Counted from the first letter of the stretch, positions 18,773 to 62,210 are shown. The stretch is 64,000 nucleotides of DNA from a bacterium (GCA_037301995.1 JAXVOW010000302.1:8-64007), one strand, 5' to 3'. Notes: a model not told the origin generated them from the letters alone. Translations and numbers: made by a program.

Positions 18773-18834
18773 CTTAACCTCCATACCTATCTAAAAACTG
18801 CCACACCTGACATACAATCAAAAACAACTAAGTA

Positions 18835-46019: not shown

Positions 46020-46700
46020 TTATCTTTTTACTCCGTTTTCCCTGATTAAACCCTTGATATATGCTGTCATGTCTTTCTCCGTCACATTTTCACTTTCCAA
46101 ATAATAATGCACCTCCCCCAAATCAAATGCTGCATAAAGATGCTCTGTTTCACTATCCTCTAATTTCCCCAGAAAGACTTCTGTTCCCTTTATATATTGT
46201 GACTTAATCTGATATAAGAGTTGATTTCCTGCAATTTTTACAGTTCCTGTCTGCACCACAATGTTTCCCTCGCCGACTTTTACTTCCGTTTTTTCAGCAT
46301 TTTTATCAAACACATAAAAAAACGAAGAATCAAAGGCTAAATAGGAATTTCGTTTTTCTCCAAATTCCTCCTCTCTCTTGTCTATATAATCACTATCCTC
46401 ATCAGAGGAGAACTCCGTAATCAAATCAGGATATACAATCCGTGTGTTCCATTGCCATACGACACCTGCTATCAGGCAGAAAACAGCAAACGCCACCATT
46501 CCATACTGCCATTTTCTTCTACTCCGTTTTAAGGTGGCATCTGCATCCTTTAAAAAAGCCCTATTGTCTAAGCCATCTCCAGCCCCTAAGCCCTGTTCTT
46601 CCCCAGAAAGCATCTTTGCCTTGGAAATGGTTTCCGCAAGCAAATCCTCTGAAGGATGCTGTTTATTCATAAAAGTTTTATAATGCTGTTCCATCTCCAA
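46020..46700 (-). CDS. Putative anti-sigma factor (single-pass membrane protein)
   Basis: Overlaps the sigma gene's 3' end by 23 nt. One TM segment (YGMVAFAVFCLIAGVVWQW). Confidence 0.55.
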   Translation of the reverse strand: MEMEQHYKTFMNKQHPSEDLLAETISKAKMLSGEEQGLGAGDGLDNRAFLKDADATLKRSRRKWQYGMVAFAVFCLIAGVVWQWNTRIVYPDLITEFSSDEDSDYIDKREEEFGEKRNSYLAFDSSFFYVFDKNAEKTEVKVGEGNIVVQTGTVKIAGNQLLYQIKSQYIKGTEVFLGKLEDSETEHLYAAFDLGEVHYYLESENVTEKDMTAYIKGLIRENGVKR

Positions 46701-47184
46701 ACTCCTTCCCCAGCTTCTTGCCTAATAGTGCTCTTCCCCTGGCAAGCTGTGATTTAATGGTTCCTTCTTTTCTCCCCAGGCATTCACTGATTTCCTTAAT
46801 TGACAATTCCTCATAGTAATATAAATGCACAATTGCCAGATACTTCTCAGGCAGACTCTTTACTGCCGCATATACCTTCCATTCCAATTCTGACGGTTCA
46901 TCTCTCTCCTGTGCCACTAGGCTTTCCTCCATGGATACTGTCTGAAATTTTGCCATTTTCATCCTATGAGTTTTTCCACAGTTAATGGTAACCCGTATCA
47001 GCCAATTCCTAATATGTTCTCTGCTCTCTAACCGGTCGATATACCGCACAAGACGGAGAAAGACCTCTTGAAAAATATCTTCTGCATCCTCCTTCGTATT
47101 ACCATAAACCATGGCAATGCGATATACCATATCACTATATCCCTTTATTATCTGTTCCAGTTCAAATTCTTCGGTGTTTTTCAA
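46678..47184 (-). CDS. ECF-type RNA polymerase sigma-70 family factor
   Basis: DAEDIFQEVFLRLV (region 2). YYEELSIKEISECLGRKEGTIKSQLARGRALL (region 4). Confidence 0.85.
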   Translation of the reverse strand: MKNTEEFELEQIIKGYSDMVYRIAMVYGNTKEDAEDIFQEVFLRLVRYIDRLESREHIRNWLIRVTINCGKTHRMKMAKFQTVSMEESLVAQERDEPSELEWKVYAAVKSLPEKYLAIVHLYYYEELSIKEISECLGRKEGTIKSQLARGRALLGKKLGKEFGDGTAL

Positions 47185-47313: not shown

Positions 47314-48042
47314 TCAAAAATCTTTATTGAGAATCTTAATATCTATCAGCTTATTCCCATCAAAAGTGAAACTAACTTCCTTTGAAGCATATTCCACTTC
47401 ATAAGTAGCAAATGCCATACCATCTGATTCCGAAAAATCTGTCGGCTCTCCATATGCCGCTTTCATATCTTCCACAGTAGATACATTTGACTGAATTCCT
47501 TTTGGCAAAACAAATGTCATATCATTACCAGAGTTATAATACAAATTAATCAGAATCCCTACAATTTTACATTCAGAGTAAGGTTGGGGATTCTCCGTTT
47601 CATTAACAATATTAACCTGTATATTGTAATCCCCTTTATTAAACGTTAAAACAGGATTATAAGTATACGCATCCAAATCTTCATTTACATCACCTTCAAA
47701 TTCCCAGCCATTTTCCAGCAACTCTTTCACATCCATCGGAATTTGATACAATTCTCCATTAATCAGAATCTGATAACTGTACAAATCATCTGATATTTCA
47801 CCGGCAGCAGCACCCTCTGTCTTAGCAGCTTCCGTTTCATTGCTTTCTGTACTTGCCTCTGTAACCTCTCCTTCATCTGTTGCTTCTGTTGTTGAAGCTT
47901 CTGCCACCTCTGTTTTGTCAACGTCACTTTCTTCCACTGGATTCATTACTCCATATGGCTCAACCTCACCGGATTTTCCACAGCCTGCCAGACAAAGCAG
48001 CATAAAAATAATGCAGCCCTTTACTAAATTTTTCTTTTTCAT
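47314..48042 (-). CDS. Hypothetical lipoprotein
   Basis: ORF 47314..48171. The start was moved to MKKKNLVKGCIIFMLLCLAGCG (ATG at 48042, RBS aaggagaa). An acidic Thr/Glu-rich linker follows. Confidence 0.65.
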   Translation of the reverse strand: MKKKNLVKGCIIFMLLCLAGCGKSGEVEPYGVMNPVEESDVDKTEVAEASTTEATDEGEVTEASTESNETEAAKTEGAAAGEISDDLYSYQILINGELYQIPMDVKELLENGWEFEGDVNEDLDAYTYNPVLTFNKGDYNIQVNIVNETENPQPYSECKIVGILINLYYNSGNDMTFVLPKGIQSNVSTVEDMKAAYGEPTDFSESDGMAFATYEVEYASKEVSFTFDGNKLIDIKILNKDF

Positions 48043-48113: not shown

Positions 48114-48791
48114 TTATTTTTTCTTCTGATTGTACCGTTTCAAAAGCTCCGCAATGTAATGGCCGATGCACACAAACAGACCCATAACTGCCGCATAATC
48201 CATCAGGAAAAATATCAGTGGTTCTTCAAAATCAAAGAATACAAACTGGATTTTCAGCAGCATATAGCTTCCAATATCCCGTTTTATAAAAGCAAATATG
48301 CCATACGTCGCAATTGCCAATGCCAGGATACGCAATATCCATGTGCGGACGCGAGACGGAGTTTTCACTAATTTTCCTGCCATCCCCATCATCATACTCC
48401 AATGGAGACCAAGATGGAGGGACATAAACGCAAAGCCCCAGTAGGAAGCGAGCATATGGAGACTTCTTGCAAAGGAGCGTCCACCGTTGATTGGAAGAAA
48501 TGAAAGGGCGTGCCGGGAGAGAATTACACCGCTGACCATAGAACCAACCATTGCAGCCAGCACCAGAAATACCAGTATGGTCTGCCATATCCTCATAGGA
48601 GTATAATTTCCCTTCCAGATATTTCTACTCCATTTCCCGTTTAAGATATGGTGGACAATGAACAGGATAAATATCCCAATTCCCAACCACTCATGAGCCG
48701 CCTGTCCAACCAGCTCATACGGCATAAGCAGCAATAAAGCAAGTGTCATGCCTATATCCACACATATTTTTGCAATTATTTTAGGTTTCAT
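48114..48791 (-). CDS. DUF4405-like polytopic membrane protein (conserved His; putative b-type cytochrome-like)
   Basis: ORF 48114..48830. The start was moved to MKPKIIAK (ATG at 48791, RBS agggagg). AHEWLGIGIFILFIVHHILNGKW and HMLASYWGFAFMSLHLGLHW. Confidence 0.7.
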   Translation of the reverse strand: MKPKIIAKICVDIGMTLALLLLMPYELVGQAAHEWLGIGIFILFIVHHILNGKWSRNIWKGNYTPMRIWQTILVFLVLAAMVGSMVSGVILSRHALSFLPINGGRSFARSLHMLASYWGFAFMSLHLGLHWSMMMGMAGKLVKTPSRVRTWILRILALAIATYGIFAFIKRDIGSYMLLKIQFVFFDFEEPLIFFLMDYAAVMGLFVCIGHYIAELLKRYNQKKK

Positions 48792-48805
48792 CCAGACCTC
48801 CCTAT

Positions 48806-49564
48806 CTAATAGCCAAGTCCGTTCAGCCATTCGGCGACATCCTCCGCCGCATCAGCCACCTCCCGCTCGCTGACCGTAAAGCCTTCGGTGATTACCGCAG
48901 CATCCGGCTCCAGCTCTTTTATCGTATCAATCGTACCGGAAAAGCGGCTCCCATTGTGAACATTAAACGGAATAATTGTCTTGCCGGAAAAATCATACTC
49001 ATCAAAAAAGCTGTACAGAGCCTGGGGCATATCGTACCACCATGTAGGAAAACCGATAAAAATGGTGTCATACTGATTTAGATTCTCAATCTGGCTGGTC
49101 AGCTCCGGACGGACATTTTCGTCCTGCTCCTCCGCCGCATAGTCAATCAATTCCCCTCCGTCTGCCGGATATACAATGGAAGTTTGAATAGAAAACAAAT
49201 CTCCGCCTGTATTTTCCTGAATCATATCCGCCACAGCGCGAAGCCGGCCCACCGCCGTCCCATTTATGGTTGTATAGCTGGCTGAGGAAACGGCATCCAC
49301 ACCACTGTTCTCCGCAGCTGTAAAATAAGCAATTAAAATCCTGCTACCTTCTTGTACCGCTCCGCTGTTATCCGATACAGTGTCCGTGGTTTCATTGTCT
49401 GTACCGCTATCCACAGTCTCTGTGGACAGCAGACTGCTTTCCTGCCCTTCTTCCGGTTGTGTGCCCTGTGCAGTATCTGTCCTGCCACAGGCGGCAAGGG
49501 TAAAGAGCATACCGGCCGTAAGCAGGCATATCAGAATGGGGGCCGTATAATTATGTTTTTTCAT
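48806..49564 (-). CDS. Exported flavodoxin-like (Flavodoxin_4-type) lipoprotein
   Basis: Lipobox FTLAACG. ILIAYFTAAENSG...YDTIFIGFPTWWYDMPQALYSFFDEYDFSGKTIIPFNVHNGS. Confidence 0.8.
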   Translation of the reverse strand: MKKHNYTAPILICLLTAGMLFTLAACGRTDTAQGTQPEEGQESSLLSTETVDSGTDNETTDTVSDNSGAVQEGSRILIAYFTAAENSGVDAVSSASYTTINGTAVGRLRAVADMIQENTGGDLFSIQTSIVYPADGGELIDYAAEEQDENVRPELTSQIENLNQYDTIFIGFPTWWYDMPQALYSFFDEYDFSGKTIIPFNVHNGSRFSGTIDTIKELEPDAAVITEGFTVSEREVADAAEDVAEWLNGLGY

Positions 49565-49590
49565 AAACATCTACCTCCAGTTTTTTGGTT

Positions 49591-50478
49591 TTACCAATTT
49601 TTCTTTTCCTTACTGCTGTCATGCTGTTTTTTGCGCTCTTCCACCATCTTTACGAACCACTCCACCATGTTCGGGTCATAATGGGAGAAGAATGCGCTTG
49701 TTTTTGTATCCAGCTTTGCAATGGCACCCATATCCTCGTCTGTCAGTGAAAAGTCAAAAACATCCAGATTCTGAATCATTCTTTCCTTGTGGGTTGACTT
49801 TGGAAGCACGATTACCCCTCTCTGGATATTCCAGCGGAGCATAACCTGTGCGGTTGTTTTGCCATATTTGTCCCCAATCTGCTTTAACACCTTGTTTTCA
49901 AAAAGTCCGCCACGGCCTTCCCCAAAAGGCGCCCATGCTTCATGGGCAATATGATACTTACCCATCCATTCGTTGTCTTCTGTGCGCTGGTTTAAGACAT
50001 GGGTCTCAATCTGGTTAATCATTGGTGGAATTCTCGTAAAAGACGCTAAATCCACCAGTCTGTCCGGGTAGAAGTTGGAAACGCCGATTGCACGCAGCTT
50101 CCCTTCGTCATACATATCCTCCAATGCCCGGTATGCACCATAATAATCATTGAACGGCTGGTGGAGCAGCATTAAATCCAGATAGTCTGTCTGAAGCTTC
50201 CGCAGGGACTCTTCAACGGATTTCCTGGTCTCTTCATATCCGTAATGCTCCACCCACACCTTGGAAGTCAGGAAAATCTCTTCCCGCGGAATACCGCTCT
50301 TTTTCATGGCAGAGCCCACCTCTTCCTCATTGAAATAAGACTGTGCGGTATCCAGGCTGCGGTATCCCACCTCCAGCGCATCCATCACACACCGCTCACA
50401 TTCATCCTTTGTTACCTGGTAAACGCCATAGCCAAGGATTGGCATTTTCACTCCATTTGATAATGTTACATATTCCAT
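49591..50478 (-). CDS. Aldo/keto reductase
   Basis: ORF 49591..50514. The start was moved to MEYVTLSNGVKMPILGYG (ATG at 50478). The AKR tetrad context is present: DTAQSYFNE, LTSKVW, LLHQP. Confidence 0.9.
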   Translation of the reverse strand: MEYVTLSNGVKMPILGYGVYQVTKDECERCVMDALEVGYRSLDTAQSYFNEEEVGSAMKKSGIPREEIFLTSKVWVEHYGYEETRKSVEESLRKLQTDYLDLMLLHQPFNDYYGAYRALEDMYDEGKLRAIGVSNFYPDRLVDLASFTRIPPMINQIETHVLNQRTEDNEWMGKYHIAHEAWAPFGEGRGGLFENKVLKQIGDKYGKTTAQVMLRWNIQRGVIVLPKSTHKERMIQNLDVFDFSLTDEDMGAIAKLDTKTSAFFSHYDPNMVEWFVKMVEERKKQHDSSKEKKNW

Positions 50479-50545
50479 AATGATTCCTCCATATTCTTTT
50501 ATAACTATAAGCACTTAAAACTGCATTTTAGCCGCTTACTATTTT

Positions 50546-51400
50546 TTATTTCTGTTCATCCACAGGCGGCACCATTTCCGCATAGGACTTCAGCATATCC
50601 GGCGTACTGGTGTAGTAACGTTTGTTTTTGTTGAGTGCTGCAATTTCCTCCATTTCCGTATCATCCAGACTGAAATCAAACAAATCAAAATTGGCACGGA
50701 TATGCTCCGGATTTTTTGAGCCCGGAATTACCACGTTCCCACTCTGAATATGCCAGCGAAGGATAATCTGCGCGTTGCTCTTTCCATACTTCGCCGCCAG
50801 CTTTGAGAATACCGGCTCCTCAATCAGCGTCTTATCTCCATGGCCCAGAGGGTACCATGCCTGGATAACCATATCTTCCTGTGCCAGAAATGCTTTCAAT
50901 TCCTGCTCCTGAGAATACGGATGTACCTCCGTCTGCAAAACAGCCGGCTTTACTTCGCAAACATCCAAAATTTCCTGAATCTGAGCAGGTGTAAAATTAG
51001 ACAATCCGATGGCTCTGACTTTTCCGGCTTTGTATGCCTGCTCCATCAGCTTGTATCCGGCAATGTAATTTCCTGCAGGCTGATGAATCAGCAACAAGTC
51101 AATATAATCTGTATCCAGACGTTCCAGAGTCTTCTCTACCGCATCCGCCTGCTCATAAAAGGACGGCCACAGCTTGGTTTCCAGGAATATCTCCTTCCGG
51201 TCAATGTCGGATTTGTGAATTGCACGGCCCACCGCTTTTTCATTCACATAGGCATTGGCTGTGTCAATCAGACGATAGCCTGATTGCAGGGCGCTGGTTA
51301 CAGAGGCCTCTGCTTCGTCAGGGCTTAACAGGAAGGTTCCAATACCAGCCATAGGCATATCTCCCCCGTTATTCAATTTAATATATTTCTGTCCACTCAT
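50546..51400 (-). CDS. Aldo/keto reductase
   Basis: IKLNNGGDMPMAGIGTF, DTANAYVNE, LETKLW, LLIHQP. Confidence 0.9.
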   Translation of the reverse strand: MSGQKYIKLNNGGDMPMAGIGTFLLSPDEAEASVTSALQSGYRLIDTANAYVNEKAVGRAIHKSDIDRKEIFLETKLWPSFYEQADAVEKTLERLDTDYIDLLLIHQPAGNYIAGYKLMEQAYKAGKVRAIGLSNFTPAQIQEILDVCEVKPAVLQTEVHPYSQEQELKAFLAQEDMVIQAWYPLGHGDKTLIEEPVFSKLAAKYGKSNAQIILRWHIQSGNVVIPGSKNPEHIRANFDLFDFSLDDTEMEEIAALNKNKRYYTSTPDMLKSYAEMVPPVDEQK

Positions 51401-51520
51401 CCTTACATCTCCTCTTCTTTTTTATATTTTTATTATAAATGTGTTTGCAGCCCAGCAGAAGTTCCTTCTGGTTTTTCAGTACACACCTTTGGGTTATACC
51501 CTTGAATTTCTGTGCGGATT

Positions 51521-52543
51521 TTATTGTATTTGTTGTCTATTTTTATCCTCTACAATTTTCGAGCCGCCAAACACTTCCGACATCTCCATCTGATTCAATG
51601 CCTCATCCAGCATCTGAACCTCCTGTGCTGTGAGCTTCACTTCCACTGCGCCTGCGTTTTCCTTCAGCCGGTCCAGTTTACGGGTACCGGGAATCGGAAC
51701 AATCCAAGGCTTTTTGCAAAGCATCCACGCCAGAGAAATCTGAGCCGGGGTTGCACCCTTATCTTCTGCCATATGCTGCAGCAGAGCAAGAAGTGCCTGG
51801 TTCTTTTCCACCGCTTCGTCCGTAAATTGCGGCATATTGCTGCGGTAGTCATATTTTGAATCAAACTTCTCGCCCTTTCCATACTTGCCGGTCAAAAAGC
51901 CGTTTGCCATAGGTGAAAATGCCACCAGACCAATCCCTAATTCTTCCAATACAGGAAACAGGGCTTCATACTGCCGCGCCATCATAGAATAACGGTTCTC
52001 CACAGCAGTCACAGGGCAGACAGCATTGGCACGGCGAAGATATTCCTCATTTGTCTCTGAAATGCCCCAATGCAGGATTTTTCCTTCTTTTATCAATTCT
52101 GCCATGACCTCCGCAACCGTTTCCGGTTCTACCGCAGGGTCAATCCGGTGCTGAAAATACAAATCAATATGATTTGTCTGCAGACGTTTCAGGGAGCCTT
52201 CTACAGACAAACGGATTACCTCTGGCCGGGAATCCGGAATTAAAGGGTGATTTACCGCCGAACTGCTCATATCAAAATGAATACCGAACTTACTGGCAAT
52301 CTGCACATGATTGCGCATTGGCTTCAGTGCTTCACCTACAAGCTGCTCGTTTATGTGCGGATTATCCTGCGTTCCATAAACCTCTGCCGTATCAAAAAAG
52401 GTGTACCCCAAATCATACGCATTGCGAATCATCTGGATGGTTTCTTCTCTTCCGGTGGGTGCGCCGTAAGCATGGCTAAAGCCCATACAGCCCAAGCCTA
52501 TAGAAGAAACCGGAAGGTCTCTTCCCAGTATTCTCGTTTCCAT
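51521..52543 (-). CDS. Aldo/keto reductase (long, ~340-aa type)
   Basis: ORF 51521..52642. The start was moved to METRILGRDLPVSSIGLGCMGFSHAYG (ATG at 52543). FDTAEVYG, IASKFG, LYFQHR. Confidence 0.88.
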   Translation of the reverse strand: METRILGRDLPVSSIGLGCMGFSHAYGAPTGREETIQMIRNAYDLGYTFFDTAEVYGTQDNPHINEQLVGEALKPMRNHVQIASKFGIHFDMSSSAVNHPLIPDSRPEVIRLSVEGSLKRLQTNHIDLYFQHRIDPAVEPETVAEVMAELIKEGKILHWGISETNEEYLRRANAVCPVTAVENRYSMMARQYEALFPVLEELGIGLVAFSPMANGFLTGKYGKGEKFDSKYDYRSNMPQFTDEAVEKNQALLALLQHMAEDKGATPAQISLAWMLCKKPWIVPIPGTRKLDRLKENAGAVEVKLTAQEVQMLDEALNQMEMSEVFGGSKIVEDKNRQQIQ

Positions 52544-52562
52544 ATTTCCTATACCTGTCCTT

Positions 52563-53012
52563 TCAAATTTTTCCGGAAAGCGCCTTTGCTTCGCCACTGT
52601 CCGTTGCCATTCCCACATACTCCATGCCATACATTCCCGCAAAGCGGCTCATGGTATATTCGGCCTTTTCCAGCATCCATGGTTCCGGAGCAGCACCCTG
52701 GAATAGAAATACAAATTTTCTTCCCTTTAGCGCTCCTGATGACACCGGACCGTAAAAACGGTCAATCAGGTTCCGTACCATTCCGCTCATATTGTGCCAG
52801 TAAACAGGGGAACCGATGACAATGGTATCTGCCGCTTTCATCCTCTCAACAATCTCTGTAAACTGGTCATCCTCAAAGTGCCGCCCATAACCGTACACCT
52901 TATAATCTACCATGTTCAGTGTCTGATATTCTTTTCCATCCATCAGCTTTTCTGCAAGCTCTGCAGTATTTCCATTTTTATTTGGACTGCCATTGATAAA
53001 TAAAATACTCAT
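52563..53012 (-). CDS. Cytoplasmic flavodoxin-fold NAD(P)H-dependent FMN reductase-like protein
   Basis: MSILFINGSPNKNGNT...IVIGSPVYWHNMSGMVRNLIDR. No signal peptide. Confidence 0.75.
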   Translation of the reverse strand: MSILFINGSPNKNGNTAELAEKLMDGKEYQTLNMVDYKVYGYGRHFEDDQFTEIVERMKAADTIVIGSPVYWHNMSGMVRNLIDRFYGPVSSGALKGRKFVFLFQGAAPEPWMLEKAEYTMSRFAGMYGMEYVGMATDSGEAKALSGKI

Positions 53013-53069
53013 TTTTTAAATCCTCCTTGTAAGTAAATTCTTCGTTATATAATGTTTACCTAAGAGTGT

Positions 53070-54632
53070 TTACTGACCGGAAAATACGTCCGTCAGGAAA
53101 CTGTCATAGGCATCAAACCAGTTTTCCCGATAGCCAAAACCATGAGGCCGGTCATCCAGCTGCAACCGCTCCACCTGTACTCCGGCAGCTTCTACCGCAT
53201 CTGCGTTGGAAAGAAACTGGTCATAAAACGGATCACGGGTACCATAACAGTAGAAGGTGGGTGGCAGATTCCCGGCACGAGGCATTTCCACATCCGTGCT
53301 GCCTACACTTAAGCGTCCATAAAAGGAATAAATCATTCCGTCGGCTGCGGCATCAGCGGAAACCTCATCCAGGGCATCCGGAACATAATCCGTATCCAAT
53401 GCCGTGCCATTCACCACTCCGTCAAAATTCAGCAGCATTTCACCTGCCAGAATACCGCCAGCCGAAAAGCCCATGACGGCGATGTCATTTTCATCAATTC
53501 CATATACATCTGCATTTTTGCGGACAAAACGGACAGCACGGGCCAAATCCAAGGCGCCTTCCTCCTGGGTATAGGGGCGCAGCCGATAATTAACGACAAA
53601 GCTCTGATAGCCCCTGCCTGCCAGTTCTTCGGCAACCGGCGTTCCTTCATTTTCATCACTGCGGTACTGAAATGCGCCTCCGGCGCAGATTAACACTGCC
53701 CCTTTCACTTCTGTTCCTTCCGGCACAGGAAAGCTTACCAGATAAGGGCGGAAATCCGGGTCATCCGAATAGTTTCCATTATTTTGTGTGTACTCGGTGG
53801 TTGCCGGAACATTACCTTCTTCCCATAAATAGAGTGTCTGGCTGTTATGAGAATCCGCAACAGCACTTAATACTGTATTGCCATTCCCAGTTTCCGGCAT
53901 CTTGACCTCCGCATTGATTCCAAGACCTTTCGCCCATTCCATAACCGTTTCCTCGCTTTCTGCTACATCATTCCGGGATAAAACCAATTCATTTCCCATC
54001 ATCAAAGCCCCCGGCTGCAGCTCAGAGATGGTATCCACTGTACGGGAAGCACCGCTTCCGCCATGGGTAATAAACGGAATAATCGTCTTTGCACCAAAAT
54101 CATATTCCTCCAGGAAGGAATAGATTGCCATGGGCATATCCCCCCACCAGTTGGGATAACCCAAAAATACATATTCATACTGTTCAAAATTCTGCACATG
54201 CGTGGCTAATTCAGGTCGAAAATCTTCGTCCTGTTCTTCTGCCGCCTGATTTACCAGCAGGTCATGGTCGAGCGGATAATCCTCCACCGTTTCAATGCGG
54301 AATAAATCTCCTCCTACCGTCTGCTGAATCAATTCTGCAACATACTTGGTATTGCCCAGCTTTTCACCGTCTTCTACGACAACACTGGCACCGGAAACGG
54401 CGTCTGTCCCGTCCACATCCTCCGGCACCGAAAAATAGGCAATCAATATATTGGAGCTTGCCGTCTGTGATTCTTCCGATGCTGGTGCATTGCCTTCATC
54501 TACGACAGACAATTCTGTCCGGCTGTCTGCCAAGGCTGTTGCCCCGGAAGTCCCGGCGCTGTTGTCAGTTCCACAGGCTGCAATACTCAGGCTGAGAACA
54601 GCAGCCAGCAAAAGAGCAATCATTCGCTTCAT
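53070..54632 (-). CDS. Lipoprotein fusion: flavodoxin-like domain plus alpha/beta hydrolase (esterase/lipase fold)
   Basis: Lipobox LSIAACG. N-domain ILIAYFSVPED...YVFLGYPNWWGDMPMAIYSFLEEYDFGAKTIIPFITHGGS. C-domain LICAGGAF...VMGFSAGG (GxSxG). Confidence 0.82.
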   Translation of the reverse strand: MKRMIALLLAAVLSLSIAACGTDNSAGTSGATALADSRTELSVVDEGNAPASEESQTASSNILIAYFSVPEDVDGTDAVSGASVVVEDGEKLGNTKYVAELIQQTVGGDLFRIETVEDYPLDHDLLVNQAAEEQDEDFRPELATHVQNFEQYEYVFLGYPNWWGDMPMAIYSFLEEYDFGAKTIIPFITHGGSGASRTVDTISELQPGALMMGNELVLSRNDVAESEETVMEWAKGLGINAEVKMPETGNGNTVLSAVADSHNSQTLYLWEEGNVPATTEYTQNNGNYSDDPDFRPYLVSFPVPEGTEVKGAVLICAGGAFQYRSDENEGTPVAEELAGRGYQSFVVNYRLRPYTQEEGALDLARAVRFVRKNADVYGIDENDIAVMGFSAGGILAGEMLLNFDGVVNGTALDTDYVPDALDEVSADAAADGMIYSFYGRLSVGSTDVEMPRAGNLPPTFYCYGTRDPFYDQFLSNADAVEAAGVQVERLQLDDRPHGFGYRENWFDAYDSFLTDVFSGQ

Positions 54633-54735
54633 CTTGTATTTCCTCCTTTTCGATTAATATTTATATAAGCAATTGCTATATTATCTTTTATCAGAAACGT
54701 AGTTGTGCAAAATTCAAGGTTTTTTAGTTGGAAGT

Positions 54736-56217
54736 TTATCGGGAAAACAGCCATCCCATGATTTCTTCGTCATAAGCAAACAGACCGCCTCCCCCATGTT
54801 CATTGGACATGCCCCGGTCAGTAAAATACGTATGCTCCTTCACATCCAGTACCAGCAGTTCGTCGATTTCCGCATCGTTCAAGCCCTGCTGCTCGTATAA
54901 AGCACGAAGGGTATCATAAGCCTCCCGGGTGGGTTCCAGACCATAATATTCATCATTGCGTCCGATAGCAAAATACACCGGCAACCGTTGCTCCACCACG
55001 GATTCATATTCCCCATCCCACTGGGAACTGACCTGAAGATAGGCGGTAAACAGCTCCGGCCGCTTGCCCATCACAACGGACATCGTCTCACCACCACCGG
55101 AAAATCCGTTGCCATATACTTTGGAAGAATCAATGTTGTATTGCTCCAGAAAATACTCCACCAGTGCAATCGTCTGATTTGCGGAGGTCTCACCCCAATC
55201 GCTTAACTGCGGTGCCACAACAATCATTTCACTGTTGTACTTCTGCGCTTCAAAGCCAAACTCTTCGGACTGTATATTTGCAGCAACACCTTGAAAATAC
55301 AGCCCTTCATATCCCGGCAGAGTAAAGTACAGGGCATATGGTCTGCTTCCATCATAGCTTTCCGGAATATAGACATTATAGTGAATATCACCCTCACTGA
55401 CGGAATGAAATACATTGTCAATGACAAAGCTCCGGTACTCTTCCGTTCCTTCCGTAACATAGCCCAACGTACTTTCCTCTGGTTTTGTATCCGTAGTTTC
55501 CATTTCGTTTTCAGTCTGACCGCTATCAGTATCCTTTGAGCCGTCTGTCTGCTCCAGCATACCGATTTCCGTGAGCCATGCAGCCACATCTGCCAGACTG
55601 GAATTATGTACACGATAGCCATCCAGAACTACAGCACCTTCCGAAACCGCCTGGATATAGTCCATGCTGATGCCAATCCCATTATCAGAACTGGTGCAGA
55701 AGGGCACAATAGTTTTTCCGTTCAAATCATAGCTTTCTAAAAAACTCCCGATTGCCATGGGCGCATTAAACCACCAAATTGGATAGCCTACATAAATGAC
55801 ATCATAATCATCCAGATTCTCCGGCTTCGCTGCCAGTTCCGGTCTCAAATTCAGCGCTTCCTCAATCCTCGCTGTAGCAGCCGTTCCCCAAAATGCACTA
55901 CGGTAATACCGTTTCGTCCGGATTTGATACAAATCTGCCCCGGTAAGCTCCTGAATCATTTTTGCTGCAGCCTCGGTGTCACTGCCATCCATATCCTGAT
56001 TGGAATTGGGTGTCGCAGAAGCCACGGCATCCATTGTATCCGGTATTTCCCCGGCTCTTGAAAAATACACCACCATGGAGCGGGTGCCATCTTCACCAGC
56101 CGTTATCTCGCTATTGGCGTCTTTAATCCGGCCGCCTAAGAACAGATACCAACAGGCAATTCCAAGCAGCACTGCCAGTGTAGTTATATTTAACAACCAC
56201 TTTTTTCTTTTTTTCAT
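54736..56217 (-). CDS. Membrane-anchored fusion: flavodoxin-like domain plus alpha/beta hydrolase (esterase)
   Basis: N-terminal TM segment. MVVYFSRAGE...VIYVGYPIWWFNAPMAIGSFLESYDLNGKTIVPFCTSS. C-domain VYGNGFSGGG (GxSxG). Confidence 0.8.
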   Translation of the reverse strand: MKKRKKWLLNITTLAVLLGIACWYLFLGGRIKDANSEITAGEDGTRSMVVYFSRAGEIPDTMDAVASATPNSNQDMDGSDTEAAAKMIQELTGADLYQIRTKRYYRSAFWGTAATARIEEALNLRPELAAKPENLDDYDVIYVGYPIWWFNAPMAIGSFLESYDLNGKTIVPFCTSSDNGIGISMDYIQAVSEGAVVLDGYRVHNSSLADVAAWLTEIGMLEQTDGSKDTDSGQTENEMETTDTKPEESTLGYVTEGTEEYRSFVIDNVFHSVSEGDIHYNVYIPESYDGSRPYALYFTLPGYEGLYFQGVAANIQSEEFGFEAQKYNSEMIVVAPQLSDWGETSANQTIALVEYFLEQYNIDSSKVYGNGFSGGGETMSVVMGKRPELFTAYLQVSSQWDGEYESVVEQRLPVYFAIGRNDEYYGLEPTREAYDTLRALYEQQGLNDAEIDELLVLDVKEHTYFTDRGMSNEHGGGGLFAYDEEIMGWLFSR

Positions 56218-56264
56218 GCTACTCCTTTCTTGCTCTTTGACTTACTTCTACTTATTCAGTTTAA

Positions 56265-57365
56265 TTAACGAAGACACTCCTTTACCATACCTGTGACTTC
56301 ATCTACAGAAAGCAGGGTAGAGATATCAATGTCTTTTATTGCTTCCGCAGAAATCTCTCCGTCAAAATGCATATCAACACCAAGCTCCACAAAAAGCTCA
56401 ACCATTTTATCAGCAGATTCCTCTATGCTTCCCTCATAGCTAAACACATCCTTAAAGTAACGTCGGATATCCGTATTATGGTATTTTGCCATCACTTTCA
56501 AAAACCGTGGAAACAGCGTCGTTAAGCTCTTGCGATAAGTTTCTTTATATAAAACCTCTGGAATAAACTCCAATTCATAAATGTCATACGCATAATTTTC
56601 TTCTTTTCCAAGCCCTAACCTTCCGGATGTCGAAATGGCTGCTCCATAAAGAATCACACCGCGCGCATCGGAATCTTGCGGATTTTCTTTCAGCTTCTTT
56701 GTCGCTGCAAGGACATTCCGAATCACAGAAATACCAATGTCATAGGATACCGGATTCATATCTCCAATAGTGGAAGCCGATAACTGTACCAGCGTGACCA
56801 ATCCGGTATAAGCCGTCATTTCCACACCAAGAGACATGGAATACTTCGGTACAAGAATCGCTATATCCGCCGCAATACCATAGGCAGTGCCAAAATCCCC
56901 GGTTCTGGAATCTGCTGATACAGCACCCAGACCATACTCCGAACCACTGGAAGGATAGGTTGGCATCAGGAGTAATGGCATTTTTTTAAGACCATACGGA
57001 TTCTTTTCCGCCTTTACATACGCCCAAAGATCATCCGTATGATGTGAACCAAATGCAATCAGCTTTGCACAATCCATAATGTTGGCGCCGCCTGCGCCAA
57101 TTACCAGCTCAATGCCCTTTTCTTTCACAAGGCGGATTCCTTCTTCAATAGCCTCCAGTTCTCTGGAAGCATTTCCAAGTTCATATAAGCTGCCGCCGGC
57201 ACTTTCCACCGCCTTCTTTACATCATCATAACAGCCATTCTTTTTCACAGAACCTCCGCCATAAACGAACAGGGTCTTTTTCCCCGCAGTAAATGCGGTT
57301 AAATCTGATACAGGGTCATTACGGAACAATAATTTCGTGTCACTTCTCAATTGAAAGTCCTTCAT
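56265..57365 (-). CDS. Iron-containing alcohol dehydrogenase-fold protein (apparently lacks the His metal ligands)
   Basis: LFVYGGGSVKKNG and VIGAGGANIMDCAKLIA match the Fe-ADH N-domain. By eye I find no counterpart of the DxxxH / HxxxH...H ligands seen in the paralogue at 58141-59310. Confidence 0.7.
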   Translation of the reverse strand: MKDFQLRSDTKLLFRNDPVSDLTAFTAGKKTLFVYGGGSVKKNGCYDDVKKAVESAGGSLYELGNASRELEAIEEGIRLVKEKGIELVIGAGGANIMDCAKLIAFGSHHTDDLWAYVKAEKNPYGLKKMPLLLMPTYPSSGSEYGLGAVSADSRTGDFGTAYGIAADIAILVPKYSMSLGVEMTAYTGLVTLVQLSASTIGDMNPVSYDIGISVIRNVLAATKKLKENPQDSDARGVILYGAAISTSGRLGLGKEENYAYDIYELEFIPEVLYKETYRKSLTTLFPRFLKVMAKYHNTDIRRYFKDVFSYEGSIEESADKMVELFVELGVDMHFDGEISAEAIKDIDISTLLSVDEVTGMVKECLR

Positions 57366-57387
57366 ATAATCAGCCTCCTTATCATTT

Positions 57388-58068
57388 TTACAGCCCCAGG
57401 CTTTCTACCCAGCTTTGGGCCTCCTCTTCTGAAACACCGGATGAGAACCGCATGCCCTCCAGCCAGTTACCGGTTCCTGCCGCTTCCTCCAGAAGCTCGC
57501 CGCTCTCTCCCAGTTCGGAAGAGGATGAGGTGCAAAATGGAATTACTGTTTTCCCGGTAAAATCATTTGCCGCAATGAATCCGTCTACCGGCCATGCTGC
57601 GATTCCCCACCAGATAGGATAGCCGATAAAAACAGTGTCATAGGATTCCCAGTCAGGAACCGTGGATTCCACAAGCTCCACTATTCTTGCATCGGGATTA
57701 TCATGCTCATACACAACACGGCTGTTGTCATCCGTCCAGTCCAGGTCATTGTCGCTATAAGGTTCCACCGGTATTAGTTCAAACAAATCTGCCCCAGCTG
57801 CCGCCGCAATATAACTGGCGGCCTCTTCGGTGTTACCCGTTGCGGAATAATAAACAACCAGAGTTTTTCCTCCTGTGGTTTCCGACACTTCGGCAGATAC
57901 CTCCTCCGAAGCTTCCGTAGTTGCCTCCGTTGACGCTTCAGCAGATGTTTCGGTATTCTCGCTGACGGATTGTGTGTCCGTAGTGTCATTTCCGCTGCTC
58001 TGACTGCCGCAGGCAGTCAAGGTGAAAATCATTAATAAACTTAAAAATAATGCTGTCATCTTTTTCAT
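57388..58068 (-). CDS. Exported flavodoxin-like lipoprotein
   Basis: Lipobox FTLTACG. TLVVYYSATGNTEE...YDTVFIGYPIWWGIAAWPVDGFIAANDFTGKTVIPFCTSSSS. Confidence 0.82.
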   Translation of the reverse strand: MKKMTALFLSLLMIFTLTACGSQSSGNDTTDTQSVSENTETSAEASTEATTEASEEVSAEVSETTGGKTLVVYYSATGNTEEAASYIAAAAGADLFELIPVEPYSDNDLDWTDDNSRVVYEHDNPDARIVELVESTVPDWESYDTVFIGYPIWWGIAAWPVDGFIAANDFTGKTVIPFCTSSSSELGESGELLEEAAGTGNWLEGMRFSSGVSEEEAQSWVESLGL

Positions 58069-58140
58069 GGTAAATCATCCTTTCTTTACATTTTTGTCTG
58101 GCCTCCCAAGACATCAGGTATACACTTGGGGTATTTCTGT

Positions 58141-59310
58141 TTAATAACATTCCCGGAAGATTTTCAATATTTCTTCATGGGTCATTTTCCTATAGCTGCC
58201 GGGAGAGAGGCTGCAGGAATCAGCAATGGCCTTCAGGTCCGTGGATTCATTTACACCCAGCTCCCGCAAGGTCGTGGGGAGACCGATTTCTTTAATGAAG
58301 TCCGCCAGAGCCTCCACACCGGCACGAGCCAATTCTTCTTCGGTTTTCCCTTCCGGCGGGATGCCCCATACATTTACGGCAAATTTCCGGAATTTAGACA
58401 GACCATCCCGATAAATGTGCCGGTAGTAGACAGGATGCAGCACTGCCAGTCCCGCACCGTGATTACAGTCTAAATAAGCTCCAAGCTGATGTTCCATCTG
58501 GTGACATTCAAAATCCGTCCGCTTACCCAGCTTAATGATGCGGTTTTCTGCCATGGCAGCCTCCCACATCAGGTTGCTTCGGGCTGTATAGTCCTCCGGG
58601 TTTTTCATAGCCGCACGCAGGTCACGGATTACGCCCCGCATAAGCGCCTCTGAAATATCATCCGACACATTTTCCTCATCCGGTTCGCTGAAATAGGTCT
58701 CCATAATATGGGATAAAATATCAAACCCGCCAGACACCATCTGTTCCTTTGGAACACTGTAGGTATAGGTTGGGTCCATAAGCGCAAACTTAGCGTTGCA
58801 TCTGGGATAGTCCCGCCCGGTCTTGACTTTCCGTTCCTCGTTAGTAATTACCGCACCGCCGTTCATTTCACTGCCGGTTCCCGCCGCCGTGACAATCACA
58901 CCCAAGGGGAGGGGCTCAAAATCAACAATACCGGGTCTCGCCCAGAAGTCCTCCCAAATATCGCCGTCATACACTGCTGCCATAGAGATAGCCTTACAGC
59001 AATCCATGACACTGCCGCCGCCCACACCGAGAATCATATCCACCCCGCTTTCCCGTGCCAGCCTTGCCCCCTCCAGCACCTTGGCATAAGTAGGATTAGC
59101 CCCAATGCCGGAAAATTCGACCACATTTTGTCCGGTCTTTTTTAAGCACTCCATCACTTCATCATAGATGCCATTGCGTTTAACAGAACCTCCTCCATAT
59201 GCCAGCATCACCGTCTGTCCATAGGACGTCGCAAGACTTGTCAGATACTCCTTTACGCAGCCTTTTCCAAAATAGATTTTGGTTGCGTTTTCAAAAATAA
59301 AATTATTCAT
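58141..59310 (-). CDS. Iron-containing alcohol dehydrogenase (butanol dehydrogenase/YqhD-like)
   Basis: MLAYGGGSVKRNG, GVGGGSVMDCCKAI, GGFDILSHIMETYF, CHQMEHQLGAYLDCNHGAGLA. Confidence 0.9.
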   Translation of the reverse strand: MNNFIFENATKIYFGKGCVKEYLTSLATSYGQTVMLAYGGGSVKRNGIYDEVMECLKKTGQNVVEFSGIGANPTYAKVLEGARLARESGVDMILGVGGGSVMDCCKAISMAAVYDGDIWEDFWARPGIVDFEPLPLGVIVTAAGTGSEMNGGAVITNEERKVKTGRDYPRCNAKFALMDPTYTYSVPKEQMVSGGFDILSHIMETYFSEPDEENVSDDISEALMRGVIRDLRAAMKNPEDYTARSNLMWEAAMAENRIIKLGKRTDFECHQMEHQLGAYLDCNHGAGLAVLHPVYYRHIYRDGLSKFRKFAVNVWGIPPEGKTEEELARAGVEALADFIKEIGLPTTLRELGVNESTDLKAIADSCSLSPGSYRKMTHEEILKIFRECY

Positions 59311-59340
59311 CTTCGTTCTCCTTTCGTTATATTTGTTTTT

Positions 59341-59548
59341 AGGTAATTGCGAAACTCATTATTTTAAAATGCGAGTTGTGCAAATGTAACAAATTTATGT
59401 TTGTAGGACATTTGAGAACGTCAGTGCTTAGCGAGGTACTTTCGAGCTTAGCACTGTTGCGTTCTCAACCAAGTGCAAACGGTCCGAAAAACATATTTGT
59501 TACATTTGTACAACGCAGGTTCTCAAAAAATCAGTTTCGCAATTACCT
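59341..59548. mobile_element. MITE-like 208-bp palindromic element with 16-bp perfect terminal inverted repeats and a 12-bp flanking direct repeat
   Basis: TIRs aggtaattgcgaaact (59341-59356) and agtttcgcaattacct (59533-59548). Flanking direct repeat atatttgttttt at 59329-59340 and 59549-59560. Internal arms also pair (gttgtgcaaatgtaacaaat/atttgttacatttgtacaac). Confidence 0.7.
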
Positions 59549-60569
59549 ATATTTGTTTTTGCCAGAATGCAATTGCCTCGTTAATCCAGCCTTCTGCCAC
59601 CGTACCGGTTCCCAGTCCAAAGCCATGTCCCAGCCCCGGATAAGAATGAAATTCTGTGTCGATTCCCAATGCACTCATACCATCCAGCCGCCGCTTCATG
59701 GTACGCCAGCTTGCAATTCCATCATTTTCTCCAACTGTCACAAATGTCGCAGGGTCATTTTCGCTGTATTCAGTTAAGCCGGTATACTGCATGATGACTG
59801 CAGCAGGCTGTGGAAGCGCCTCGGCACCAAAGGCTGCGGTTCCATAGGAGCCAAGCCATGCCGCCATTCTCGCACCGGCACTTCCTCCCCACAGAGAATA
59901 GCCGTCGGTGTTTACCTCCAATTCTCCGGCATGTTCAAAAATATATTGAATGGCACGGGCCAGATCTTCACAGGCTGTCTGCGCACCTGGCCGGTAAATC
60001 AAGGTAAATGCGTTATATCCTTGCTTGGACAGCTCCAAAGCATGAGGAAAGCTGTCCTGCATGGCTCCCACATAGGCAAACGCCCCACCGGCATTGCAAA
60101 TGGCAAATCTTTCGCCAGGGTTCCCCTTGAAAAAGAACAAGCCTGTATCTTCTTTTGCCGGGTCAGCCGACTTTTTTTCCTCTGTATAAATGTCATAAAA
60201 AATGACGTCACCAGAGGCGGCATGCTCCCTCATATAATTTGCAATTTCCACCGTCTCCTCCGAATCTATGTTGTTATACCAGGTCAGCTGCAGCTCCCCC
60301 AGCGTGTTCCCGCTGTAATAACCGGTGTCTACCGGAAAAATCAGCCTGCCATAATCTCCAAAAACAGGATCCTGAATGACATCGGATATGGCTGTGTCAA
60401 CGGTATACGAATTACGCATACCTGCATTGACTGTATTATCCTCCTCAGCTTCTGTCCGGATAGTGTTAGATGGCATATTCTGCTTTGTTGCACCTGTATT
60501 TCCACAAGCACTGAGTATCATCATAAACAGGACTGCCAGGATTCCCATTGCAATTACCCGTTTCAACAT
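59547..60569 (-). CDS. Alpha/beta hydrolase lipoprotein (esterase/lipase fold)
   Basis: ORF 59547..60587. The start was moved to MLKRVIAMGILAVLFMMILSACG (ATG at 60569, RBS aggaggg). ICNAGGAF...LWGGSAGA (GxSxG). The TAG stop lies inside the MITE terminal repeat. Confidence 0.82.
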   Translation of the reverse strand: MLKRVIAMGILAVLFMMILSACGNTGATKQNMPSNTIRTEAEEDNTVNAGMRNSYTVDTAISDVIQDPVFGDYGRLIFPVDTGYYSGNTLGELQLTWYNNIDSEETVEIANYMREHAASGDVIFYDIYTEEKKSADPAKEDTGLFFFKGNPGERFAICNAGGAFAYVGAMQDSFPHALELSKQGYNAFTLIYRPGAQTACEDLARAIQYIFEHAGELEVNTDGYSLWGGSAGARMAAWLGSYGTAAFGAEALPQPAAVIMQYTGLTEYSENDPATFVTVGENDGIASWRTMKRRLDGMSALGIDTEFHSYPGLGHGFGLGTGTVAEGWINEAIAFWQKQI

Positions 60570-60621
60570 ATTTATCCCTCCTGCCATGCAACTCTCTTAC
60601 TTCATTTGCTACCTACAGTAT

Positions 60622-60654
60622 AAAAAAATCGAGACTTCCACAGAAGTCTCGATT
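60622..60654 (-). terminator. Rho-independent terminator after the LysR gene
   Basis: On the minus strand, aatcgagacttc-tgtg-gaagtctcgatt followed by tttttta. Confidence 0.8.
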
Positions 60655-60689
60655 CGTTCATCAGTTTATACCCAAAGGTTATATCTATT

Positions 60690-61592
60690 TTATTTATGCA
60701 ATACCGCCTGAATTGCCGACAGAAAACGCTTTACTGTTTCGGATGGAGCAGGAGAATGGAGCAAGCCATAAGGAATAGAATGATTCCATTCCACCGGAAT
60801 GACTTTTAATAAGGGATGCACATTATCCCATGCCTGGACTGCCATCAGAACATCATTACTGTTTTCACACCGGTTAAAAACATCTACACTGTAAAAATCA
60901 AAATCCACAATCTCAATCCGACTGTGATTCTGCCAGATATCATCCCGGAGAACATCCACATAATGACTCCAGTTCCGGTGCATCAGCATCAGCCGTTCCC
61001 CATATAAATCCTGAACAGTCATCCTGTTCTTACCGGCAAGACGATGATGGATGGACACCGCACAGCATATCGGCTGTCTGGAAATTTCAAAGCCTGCGCA
61101 GCTTCTCACATTCAACATCGTATCATCAAAAATACCTGCGACCACATCAATGTTCTGTCCGAGATTTTTCAAAATCTCCCTTGCATTTTCCGGTGTATTT
61201 TCAAAGGGAATAAGTTGGAATTTAATTTCCGGGCAGAGCTCGTGAATCTTGGGCCAAAGCTCCACCAAAACTCCAGCCGGCGTCATAGGAGAAGTTCCGA
61301 TACGAATAACATTATCCCCCTCCTGCATCGCATTCTTTGCCCGGATTACAGAATCCTTGCAATACTGAATCACATATTTTGCATCATTATACAAAGAGGT
61401 TCCTGCCTTTGTCAGCTTCAGCCCTCGATGGGTACGCTCAAAAAGCTTCACCTCTAAATCTGCTTCCAGCAGATTAATCTGTTTAATCACAGCCGTAGGC
61501 GTAATGTAAGCTTGTTCAGCAGCCTTATTAAAGCTTCCGGCATCTGCAACACGGATAAACGTTTCAAGTTGAGGATTATACACCACTATCAC
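60690..61592 (-). CDS. LysR family transcriptional regulator
   Basis: N-terminal HTH LETFIRVADAGSFNKAAEQAYITPTAVIKQINLLE plus a LysR substrate-binding domain. GTG start; the exact start codon is uncertain (several GTGs after aagagg). Confidence 0.88.
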   Translation of the reverse strand: MIVVYNPQLETFIRVADAGSFNKAAEQAYITPTAVIKQINLLEADLEVKLFERTHRGLKLTKAGTSLYNDAKYVIQYCKDSVIRAKNAMQEGDNVIRIGTSPMTPAGVLVELWPKIHELCPEIKFQLIPFENTPENAREILKNLGQNIDVVAGIFDDTMLNVRSCAGFEISRQPICCAVSIHHRLAGKNRMTVQDLYGERLMLMHRNWSHYVDVLRDDIWQNHSRIEIVDFDFYSVDVFNRCENSNDVLMAVQAWDNVHPLLKVIPVEWNHSIPYGLLHSPAPSETVKRFLSAIQAVLHK

Positions 61593-61651: not shown

Positions 61652-61929
61652 CTAAAGCGCTGCACCTATTGTAGCATATCCACTCAGATACGTATACATC
61701 ACCGGATTTGCATTCGCATACAGATACTTATGCAGGCTTACCGGGTCATAAATACTTCCCTGATAGCTGTCCATGCTGATAAAGGTTCCGGTAAACGGAT
61801 TCATATACCTTGCACGAAGGTAATATAATCCTGTATTCGCATTGTACTGTTCCCCAGTGTAGAGGAACTCGTTTTTGGTATCGGCTTCCTTCTCTAATAA
61901 GCTGCCATAGGCATCATAGCTGTAGCGGT
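61652..61929 (-). pseudogene. Orphan RHS core-end fragment (no start codon, truncated tip)
   Basis: 61691-61929 duplicates 62878-63116 (239 nt, about 6 mismatches). It encodes ..YSYDAYGSLLEKE..YYLRARYMNPFTGTFISMDSYQGSIYDPVSLHKYLYANANPVMYT, then YLSGYATIGAAL and a stop at 61652. Confidence 0.8.
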
Positions 61930-61952
61930 GATTTATCCACTATTTTCATTTA

Positions 61953-62210
61953 TTATTCTATCCAATCACCAGTACTACCATCATATGTAATAAATCCGTC
62001 TTTCCAATGATCTTGATTCAGTTCATATCTATCAATATAAAAGCAATCAACAGGAAAGCGGTTGAATCCTTTTTTGGTTTTGTATCTTTCTATTGCCTCT
62101 TCTGCCTTTTTATAAGAACTATAAATTCCAATAATTTTTATATTTTCTTTACTTATATCTTCTGTTACTTCATACTCATAACAATGCTGTAGTAAATACA
62201 CTTTTTGCAT
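61953..62210 (-). CDS. Putative immunity protein for the RHS C-terminal toxin
   Basis: An 85-aa acidic cytoplasmic ORF 28 nt downstream of the toxin stop. The call rests on position only. Confidence 0.6.
   Translation of the reverse strand: MQKVYLLQHCYEYEVTEDISKENIKIIGIYSSYKKAEEAIERYKTKKGFNRFPVDCFYIDRYELNQDHWKDGFITYDGSTGDWIE

Follow-up and report, generated by a model that had tools for sequence, protein, structure and literature searches.

A trans-membrane redox pairing of extracytosolic Flavodoxin_4 proteins with DUF4405 membrane proteins is already known from Firmicutes (Huang, Meheust, Barquera and Light 2024, mSystems, PMC11334425). The Flavodoxin_4 (PF12682) proteins described there carry an insertion between strand beta1 and helix alpha1 with a [S/T]GA[S/T]-like motif, and they were covalently flavinylated upon co-expression with the cognate ApbE, which was abolished by placing Ala at the predicted Ser/Thr site (PMC11334425). 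The DUF4405 (PF14358) partners possess six helices and four central histidines and were likened structurally to MsrQ-like and PepSY-like cytochromes, and a purified Oscillospiraceae homologue (MBD5117352.1) displayed haem b spectra (PMC11334425). Here we analyzed a 64,000-nt stretch of bacterial DNA (the window), in which positions 48114-61592 (the block) hold a LysR-family regulator gene and 12 genes 3′ of it. The locus very probably belongs to the published class, with which it shares the PF12682 insertion and its motif, the extracytosolic site, the adjacent six-helix PF14358 protein with central histidines and the Firmicutes background; in many relatives of the locus, apbE also lies directly downstream. 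It differs in lacking local apbE and flavin-transporter genes, in having four flavodoxin domains (one non-covalent, two fused to esterases), and in adding three aldo-keto reductases (AKRs), two Fe-ADH-fold proteins, an FMN reductase and LysR to the operon.

Two other systems are partly comparable. In E. coli MsrPQ/Fre, a membrane b-haem protein relays cytosolic NAD(P)H electrons to an extracytoplasmic redox enzyme, and MsrQ is described as holding one b haem plus FMN (PMC12525009), in contrast to the two haems predicted for the window DUF4405. Its partner MsrP is a molybdoenzyme repairing methionine sulfoxide, not a flavodoxin. In the flavin-based extracellular electron transfer of the Gram-positive Listeria monocytogenes (FmnB/ApbE, PplA, EetA/B and Ndh2), a surface lipoprotein receives its flavin from an enzyme of the ApbE type and delivers electrons to acceptors outside (PMC9973259). 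However, the Listeria system uses FMN_bind domains, a dedicated type II NADH dehydrogenase (NDH-2) and quinone, and it has no DUF4405, flavodoxin fold, esterases or AKRs. Flavodoxin-fold FMN proteins such as WrbA and the NQO1-type quinone/azo reductases reduce quinones, and the MhqR/YodB quinone-electrophile regulons of Bacillus subtilis combine reductases with a carboxylesterase-like hydrolase. These are cytoplasmic enzymes using NAD(P)H directly, whereas the window flavodoxins are predicted to sit outside the membrane and to be fed through it.

Domain assignment with Pfam over 28 open reading frames (ORFs) of the window recovered every family named in a preliminary description of the block, and all 13 genes were found to run co-directionally on the minus strand, twelve of them 3′ of LysR as had been claimed. 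The four Flavodoxin_4 domains score 79.7-135.4 bits (PF12682 cut-off, 24 bits) and belong to two exported lipoproteins (48806-49570, 1.1e-23; 57388-58068, 1.5e-39), a lipoprotein fused to a BD-FAE/Abhydrolase_3 esterase domain (53070-54632) and a membrane-anchored protein fused to a Peptidase_S9-like esterase domain (54736-56217; Flavodoxin_4 3.1e-27, Peptidase_S9 1.7e-8). Aligning the four domains separated two types. In the proteins at 48806, 53070 and 54736, strand beta1 (YF[ST]) is immediately followed by ~20 inserted residues, located between beta1 and alpha1 and containing the motifs DAVSSAS (nt 49277-49297), DAVSGAS (nt 54384-54404) and DAVASAT (nt 56011-56031), respectively, while the protein at 57388 lacks the insertion and has a canonical YSATGNT phosphate loop. 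The 57388 domain aligns over its full length to the non-covalent Flavodoxin_4 crystal structures 4ICI, 4J8P and 3KLB, and the alignment of 48806 to 3KLB begins only at helix alpha1. In the 53070 fusion, D77, A82 and S83, the predicted flavinylated Ser, are invariant in 37 homologues. Because the inserted loop bears the ApbE flavinylation motif, the three motif-bearing flavodoxins are probably covalent flavoproteins requiring ApbE; for the window proteins this follows from the motif, flavinylation having been demonstrated for homologues only.

Export was judged from lipoboxes and anchors read from the sequence. The lipoboxes LAAC, IAAC, LTAC (57388) and LSAC (the separate esterase described below) occur at residues 17-28 after K/R-rich hydrophobic N-termini, 54736 has a hydrophobic N-terminal anchor (LLGIAC), and no twin-arginine motif was seen in any exported window protein. 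Three Flavodoxin_4 proteins with lipoprotein signals and one with an anchor are thus visible, as the preliminary description had it, and its assertion of flavodoxin folds outside the cytoplasm is borne out; the flavin-site elements G[YF]PxWW and T[IV][IV]PF are kept in all four domains. When 1.84 billion representatives were searched with a profile of the fusion, flavodoxin domains of this clade were found in large surface proteins, joined to three SLH repeats, Cu_amine_oxidN1, Big_2 or cyclophilin-like modules, or in tandem with one or two further flavodoxin domains (examples: P0247, P0275, P0279, P0295, P0303, P0305, P0308, P0329 and P0366). The fusions to SLH, Big_2 and Cu_amine_oxidN1 independently support the surface location, and these surface and tandem proteins may be multi-flavin surface wires.

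The gene starting 14 nt downstream of the 48806 flavodoxin encodes the DUF4405 protein (48114-48791, 6.8e-13), which scores 49.4 bits against PF14358 (cut-off 26.7). Since its homologues are ~227 aa long, its true start was placed at the methionine of MKPK; here, as in the first AKR and the first esterase, translation is taken to begin later than in the longest ORF. Its homologues number in the thousands, the closest named one being from Dorea acetigenes (81% identity). In 20 homologues (70-94% identity), H33, H47, H48, H94, H112, H126 and H130 are invariant, including two H-x13-H pairs on helices 2 and 4 (H33/H47 and H112/H126), so that candidate haem-ligand pairs of the kind raised in the preliminary description are present. 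Under the positive-inside rule, H33/H112 come to lie nearer the outer face and H47/H126 nearer the inner one, and the AlphaFold2 (AF2) model consists of six long helices. The H-x13-H spacing is that of classical di-haem cytochromes b, and from this histidine pattern DUF4405 is predicted to be a di-haem trans-membrane cytochrome. For the window protein haem b binding is likewise a prediction, demonstrated in a homologue only. The role of DUF4405 as a membrane electron-transfer component, which the preliminary description had named as a proposal, had in fact been published with experiments in 2024, paired with Flavodoxin_4 (PMC11334425).

To place the block among its relatives, DUF4405 loci were collected from one genome per GTDB species; 415 were found and the best 80 were examined, almost all from Lachnospiraceae or Oscillospiraceae and many from human, mouse and other animal guts. 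ORFs were labelled by BLASTP against the window proteins plus extra references checked with Pfam, and for the 51 loci that extend at least 5 kb upstream of DUF4405, neighbours were counted within the co-directional gene run to which it belongs. Flavodoxin_4 occurred in 40 of these, an AKR or Fe-ADH in 34, FMN_red or Flavin_Reduct in 31, an alpha/beta-hydrolase in 30, ApbE in 16, CMD in 15, RibD_C in 12, a flavodoxin-hydrolase fusion in 11 and LysR in 8. As a control for polarity, genes upstream and downstream of DUF4405 were compared in 22 loci with 9 kb on both sides, giving upstream:downstream counts of 27:3 for Flavodoxin_4, 22:4 for hydrolases, 17:6 for AKR, 15:3 for FMN_red, 13:3 for Fe-ADH, 5:0 for LysR and 1:6 for ApbE. 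The commonest immediate upstream neighbour was Flavodoxin_4 (24 loci), followed by FMN_red (15) and a hydrolase (10). The co-occurrence of Flavodoxin_4, DUF4405 and AKR in other genomes, suggested earlier as a check, is therefore found, and with strong upstream polarity. For most window proteins, 9-26 loci hold orthologues with 50% identity or more; LysR orthologues at this threshold head the same cluster in 9 related loci, and those of the AKR at 49591-50478 occur in 20, with up to 96% identity. In Dorea sp. 5-2 and three other genomes the gene order (LysR, esterase, Fe-ADH, flavodoxin, flavodoxin-esterase, FMN_red, CMD, AKR, esterase, DUF4405) is nearly that of the window.

The distribution of these families between compartments is conserved across species as well. 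By a simple signal-plus-lipobox test, an export signal was present in 57 of 80 Flavodoxin_4 proteins, 15 of 17 fusions, 35 of 54 hydrolases and 20 of 24 ApbE proteins of the related loci, and absent from all FMN_red (44/44), Fe-ADH (32/32), Flavin_Reduct (13/13) and RibD_C (13/13) proteins and from 73 of 76 AKRs.

Three exported alpha/beta hydrolases had been proposed, and both the Pfam matches and the export signals agree, with the addition that two are physically fused to a flavodoxin domain. The third is a lipoprotein of its own (59547-60569; BD-FAE 3.7e-8, Abhydrolase_3; lipobox LSAC), whose likely true start is the ATG at 60569 (the longest ORF runs to 60587) and whose PDB relatives are the esterase MGS-M1 and heroin esterase. 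Nucleophile elbows were recognized in all three domains (GFSAG; GFSGG in 54736; GGSAG in 59547), which by sequence resemble family-IV carboxylesterases and feruloyl or polyhydroxybutyrate (PHB)-depolymerase-type esterases. The PDB relatives of the 54736 hydrolase are feruloyl esterases and the PHB-depolymerase family, and the AF2 model of 53070 (predicted local distance difference test, pLDDT, 72.5) matches acetyl, carbohydrate and aryl esterases (6A6O, Est2 and 6XYC) as well as the flavodoxin 4ICI (TMt 0.79). Within the 53070 family, all 37 homologues share D467 and H497, and at least 90% of them share S390, which means that the triad S390/D467/H497 and the flavinylation site are jointly conserved in one polypeptide. 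At least 120 clusters (90% identity) contain full-length matches to this Flavodoxin_4/BD-FAE fusion, which sources annotate only as ‘flavodoxin’. Across the loci, four hydrolase families follow the flavodoxin domain: BD-FAE/Abhydrolase_3, Peptidase_S9-like, PF00756 Esterase and Hydrolase_4/Abhydrolase_1. Since such fusions arose repeatedly and independently, this sequence pattern, the strongest evidence available, suggests that the esterase and the flavodoxin share a substrate or a site of action.

The cytoplasmic partners comprise the FMN reductase (52563-53012, FMN_red 2e-19), three AKRs (51521-52543, Aldo_ket_red 9.1e-74; 50546-51400, 2.1e-49; 49591-50478, 4.1e-47) and a YqhD-like Fe-ADH, an aldehyde/alcohol oxidoreductase (58141-59310; Fe-ADH 1.9e-42, ADH_Fe_C 5.7e-35). 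Every NCBIfam match of the AKRs, Fe-ADHs, FMN_red and LysR fell below its curated cut-off; these sub-threshold matches place the two shorter AKRs as DkgA/DkgB-like (for 50546-51400, 250 bits on the DkgA model against a 425-bit cut-off), the Fe-ADH 58141 with PRK15138 (YqhD-like) and FMN_red as SsuE-like. The metal-ligand positions of 58141 are present and it has no signal peptide. The preliminary description had counted two Fe-ADH-fold proteins; the fold is indeed found in both, but in the second (56265-57365; Fe-ADH N-terminal domain 7.2e-24, C-terminal domain 1e-3, below the cut-off) alignment with 58141 revealed that none of the four metal ligands (Asp and three His) is retained and that the nucleotide motif GGGS reads GGAN. 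The protein at 56265, assigned here to the Fe-ADH fold only, is probably not a dehydrogenase and may be a pseudo-enzyme. FMN_red carries neither a signal peptide nor a flavinylation motif, and in the 15 related loci counted above it directly precedes DUF4405. Because of this frequent adjacency and the MsrQ precedent, in which a cytosolic NADH oxidoreductase feeds the b-haem protein (PMC12525009), FMN_red is the likelier electron donor. The AKRs and Fe-ADH are more likely parallel cytoplasmic reductases.

The regulator gene itself (60690-61592; HTH_1 5.6e-20, LysR_substrate 9e-9) is followed by an intrinsic-terminator-like hairpin (60620-60655, minus strand) with a 13-bp stem containing 5 GC pairs and a T-run, stem and T-run together spanning 60655-60626, a pattern in support of the earlier remark that LysR has its own terminator, and ~50 nt separate this hairpin from the next start codon. 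No riboswitch for FMN or any other ligand was found in the operon, the only Rfam match at E up to 1 being a chance rli40 hit.

Taken as a whole, the block is probably best explained as an extended version of the ApbE-dependent, flavinylated Flavodoxin_4 plus DUF4405 cytochrome system for extracytosolic electron transfer in Firmicutes. By analogy with Fre/MsrQ, FMN_red (52563-53012) would reduce the inner haem of DUF4405; electrons would then cross the membrane through two bis-His b haems, with H47/H126 as inner and H33/H112 as outer predicted ligands. Sec-exported Flavodoxin_4 lipoproteins would accept them, after an ApbE encoded elsewhere in the genome had fixed FMN covalently to Ser98, Ser83 and Thr69 of the DAV[SA][SG]A[ST] loop in 48806, 53070 and 54736, respectively. 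On balance we lean toward this route, from cytoplasmic NAD(P)H via FMN_red and two b haems to covalent surface flavodoxins. What lies beyond is more speculative: the surface flavoproteins, two of them esterase-fused, might reduce a small electrophilic acceptor at the cell surface, our best guess being quinone-like or other phenolic compounds unmasked by ester hydrolysis, and the co-regulated AKRs and YqhD-like Fe-ADH might reduce carbonyl products or related aldehydes in the cytoplasm. That the esterases release or bind the compounds which the surface flavoproteins reduce, with AKRs and Fe-ADH handling carbonyls inside, is a tentative proposal. It is similarly doubtful that the fusions are bifunctional surface enzymes, hydrolysing an ester and then reducing the released redox-active moiety with power drawn from NAD(P)H via FMN_red/DUF4405. 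Overall, the locus could be a LysR-linked, horizontally mobile, two-compartment reductive module for detoxification or electron disposal. The redox/esterase system put forward in the preliminary description thus gains from the extracytoplasmic flavodoxins, the histidine pattern, the co-occurrence and the fusions, but it had missed the covalent flavinylation motif and the 2024 publication.

Several observations weigh against an extended flavinylated electron-transfer system. Beyond the flavodoxin fold, the block shows no known ene-, azo- or quinone-reductase signature. The AF2 model of DUF4405 is only moderately confident (pLDDT 71), and Foldseek returned no significant match for it in the PDB, the best being cytochrome b561 (TM 0.41-0.43, E ~3). 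The interval from the LysR terminator to the first gene contains no evident promoter, and a palindrome described below interrupts the operon after gene 1 and could affect co-transcription. Since the covalent site is absent from the exported flavodoxin 57388, this protein would have to bind free FMN outside the cell. Neither apbE (by Pfam on the 28 ORFs, tblastn with 24 ApbE sequences and a six-frame ApbE HMM search) nor a flavin-transporter pair was found in the 64-kb window. As to apbE, a motif-bearing flavodoxin occurs in 33 of the 51 related loci and 20 of these 33 have no local apbE, so this is the usual situation and not the exception. In a Clostridia genome, moreover, a trans-encoded ApbE is expected because Rnf subunits need ApbE. 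In 19 related loci ApbE is encoded immediately 3′ of DUF4405 (one example was checked, Pfam 2.9e-87). As a side observation, a NusG_II membrane protein and an Hpre_diP_synt_I protein follow apbE in a few related loci (L013:11753-12640, also L018, L019 and L071); this pair, absent from the window, may be the flavin-provisioning transporter mentioned by Huang et al.

The variability of the partner set invites a different reading, namely that two independent modules merely share a regulator and that the esterases are unrelated surface enzymes. One module would be a cytoplasmic set against electrophile and carbonyl stress (AKRs, Fe-ADH and FMN_red, with CMD and RibD_C in relatives), and in the other Flavodoxin_4/DUF4405 would dump electrons on free flavins, Fe(III) or oxygen. 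AKR, Fe-ADH, CMD, RibD_C and Flavin_Reduct do come and go among the loci, minimal loci consist of Flavodoxin_4-DUF4405(-ApbE) only, NCBIfam puts the AKRs and Fe-ADH only in generic DkgA-like and YqhD-like groups, and the core was described without these partners (PMC11334425). We nevertheless regard this separation as unlikely, given the four independent hydrolase families fused to the flavodoxin domain, the conservation of the esterase triad and flavinylation Ser in one polypeptide, and the strong upstream polarity of partners whose orthologues (at least 50% identity) recur in 9-26 loci.

The inducible-stress appearance of the LysR, AKR and YqhD-like genes counts against another possibility, a respiratory-type electron sink in which NAD+ would be regenerated through an abundant gut acceptor, as in Listeria extracellular electron transfer, with the esterases freeing this acceptor, for example hydroxycinnamates, from dietary esters. 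In its favour, the esterase domains are similar to feruloyl, acetyl-xylan and carbohydrate esterases, the loci come from Lachnospiraceae and Oscillospiraceae of the gut, and extracytosolic electron transfer was the setting in which the class was first delimited (PMC11334425). However, FAD_binding_2, old yellow enzyme (OYE)-type ene-reductase, quinone-biosynthesis and NDH-2 genes are absent from the cluster, and a di-haem wire fed by a soluble reductase offers no obvious energy conservation, which makes a sink rather improbable. It is still harder to view the exported flavodoxins as flavin binders, scavengers or cofactor carriers, with DUF4405 only keeping bound or free flavin reduced. The existence of tandem multi-flavodoxin proteins and the need of 57388-58068, without a covalent site, to bind free FMN outside the cell would fit such a role; the covalent-attachment motif is, however, invariant in the majority class, and the fusion is to esterases that appear catalytically intact, so that we consider a carrier function very unlikely.

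Compared with the published core, the flavinylated electron-transfer system proposed here is extended by a partner set (AKR, Fe-ADH, FMN reductase and exported esterases) that dozens of species of Lachnospiraceae and Oscillospiraceae encode upstream of DUF4405. The text of PMC11334425 contains none of the words aldo, hydrolase, esterase, alcohol dehydrogenase and LysR, and nothing relevant to the extended gene set emerged from literature searches. Not described in the literature searched are the conserved link to esterases (with four fusion types), AKR, Fe-ADH, FMN_red and LysR, and the flavodoxin paralogue that is exported but non-covalent. The surface redox chemistry of Lachnospiraceae and Oscillospiraceae, both dominant anaerobes of the gut, is largely unexplored, and this locus type unites predicted covalent flavoproteins and esterases on the cell surface, links them genetically to cytoplasmic NAD(P)H reductases and is passed from species to species. 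A functional coupling would give gut bacteria a route to reduce dietary phenolic esters, quinones or drugs extracellularly, and would assign a testable physiological role to DUF4405/Flavodoxin_4, of which only cofactor binding has been described so far. Should the fusions prove bifunctional, they would represent a mobile and previously unrecognised pathway by which gut Lachnospiraceae metabolise esterified dietary phenolics or xenobiotics reductively outside the cell.

Mobility was examined by comparing related clusters and their flanks. The LysR-to-DUF4405 cluster is 93.6-98% identical at the nucleotide level over 8-12.5 kb in L046, L050, L054 and L056, which represent four different mouse-gut species with flank GC contents of 0.42-0.57. 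Near-identical clusters in four species with differing flanks indicate that related clusters were recently exchanged horizontally. For the window itself, the relative L001 (92-97% identical) carries the cluster at the same site, beside the S10 operon. Because L001 shares the insertion site and cluster and flanks are similarly conserved, acquisition of the window block as a unit is plausible but not recent. The preliminary description had argued for such acquisition from the higher GC content of the block, which is confirmed (0.469 against 0.402 in the rest of the window); the exchange of related clusters between species speaks for it, while the insertion site shared with L001 speaks against it in the case of the window. 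High GC content relative to flanks was rejected as a general property of the cluster, since cluster minus flank averages +0.006 over 25 loci (cluster GC 0.44-0.50, flank GC 0.39-0.57). Greater conservation of the cluster than of its flanks was likewise dismissed as a sign of recent transfer, both being 92-97% identical between the window and L001. L001 also encodes the same anchor and S9-like esterase as 54736, but there the flavodoxin domain is missing, as is the second Fe-ADH gene (56265), which shows that modules of the cluster are gained and lost in frame. Serine-recombinase-like and phage-like or integrative and conjugative element (ICE)-like ORFs, judged from N-terminal sequences only, occur near some related clusters.

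Between genes 1 and 2 of the operon lies a near-perfect 207-bp palindrome (59341-59547) with 63-nt arms that are 81% complementary, and its predicted RNA fold has -86.8 kcal/mol (z -11.9). It is absent from L001 (93% identical), and this strain-specific repeat is not a functional part of the system. Metagenome contigs from the human gut carry full-length relatives (8 contigs, 67-85% identity), and ~17 further contigs carry the conserved terminus of 24-32 nt, often at contig ends. The element looks like a dispersed repeat similar to miniature inverted-repeat transposable elements (MITEs) or repetitive extragenic palindromic (REP) sequences.

Beyond the block, a lipoprotein gene 3′ of DUF4405 (47314-48042) was considered as a 13th member and rejected, its homologues being confined to the same-site relative L001. 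A few kb 3′ of the cluster, behind an extracytoplasmic function (ECF) sigma/anti-sigma pair (46020-47184), a transglutaminase-core membrane protein is encoded (43708-46014, minus strand); such a protein likewise follows the cluster at a few kb in five unrelated loci (L018:4713-6185, L022, L026, L028 and L029), which may be coincidence. Directly upstream of LysR, all on the minus strand and in this order, are an RHS-repeat protein (62239-63906), an 85-aa ORF (61953-62210) and an orphan fragment (61655-61930) that repeats the end of the RHS core (…YTGEQYNANTGLYYLRARYMNPFTGTFISMDSYQG…), an arrangement resembling an rhs toxin locus with an orphan C-terminal cassette. A DpnII-type restriction-modification system (8394-10897, minus strand) comprises the DpnII endonuclease (6.9e-110), an N6_N4 methylase and a D12-class adenine methylase. 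Finally, a hybrid sensor kinase with dCache and two receiver domains, followed by two tandem response regulators with HD/HD_5 outputs, is encoded at 14063-18784 (minus strand).

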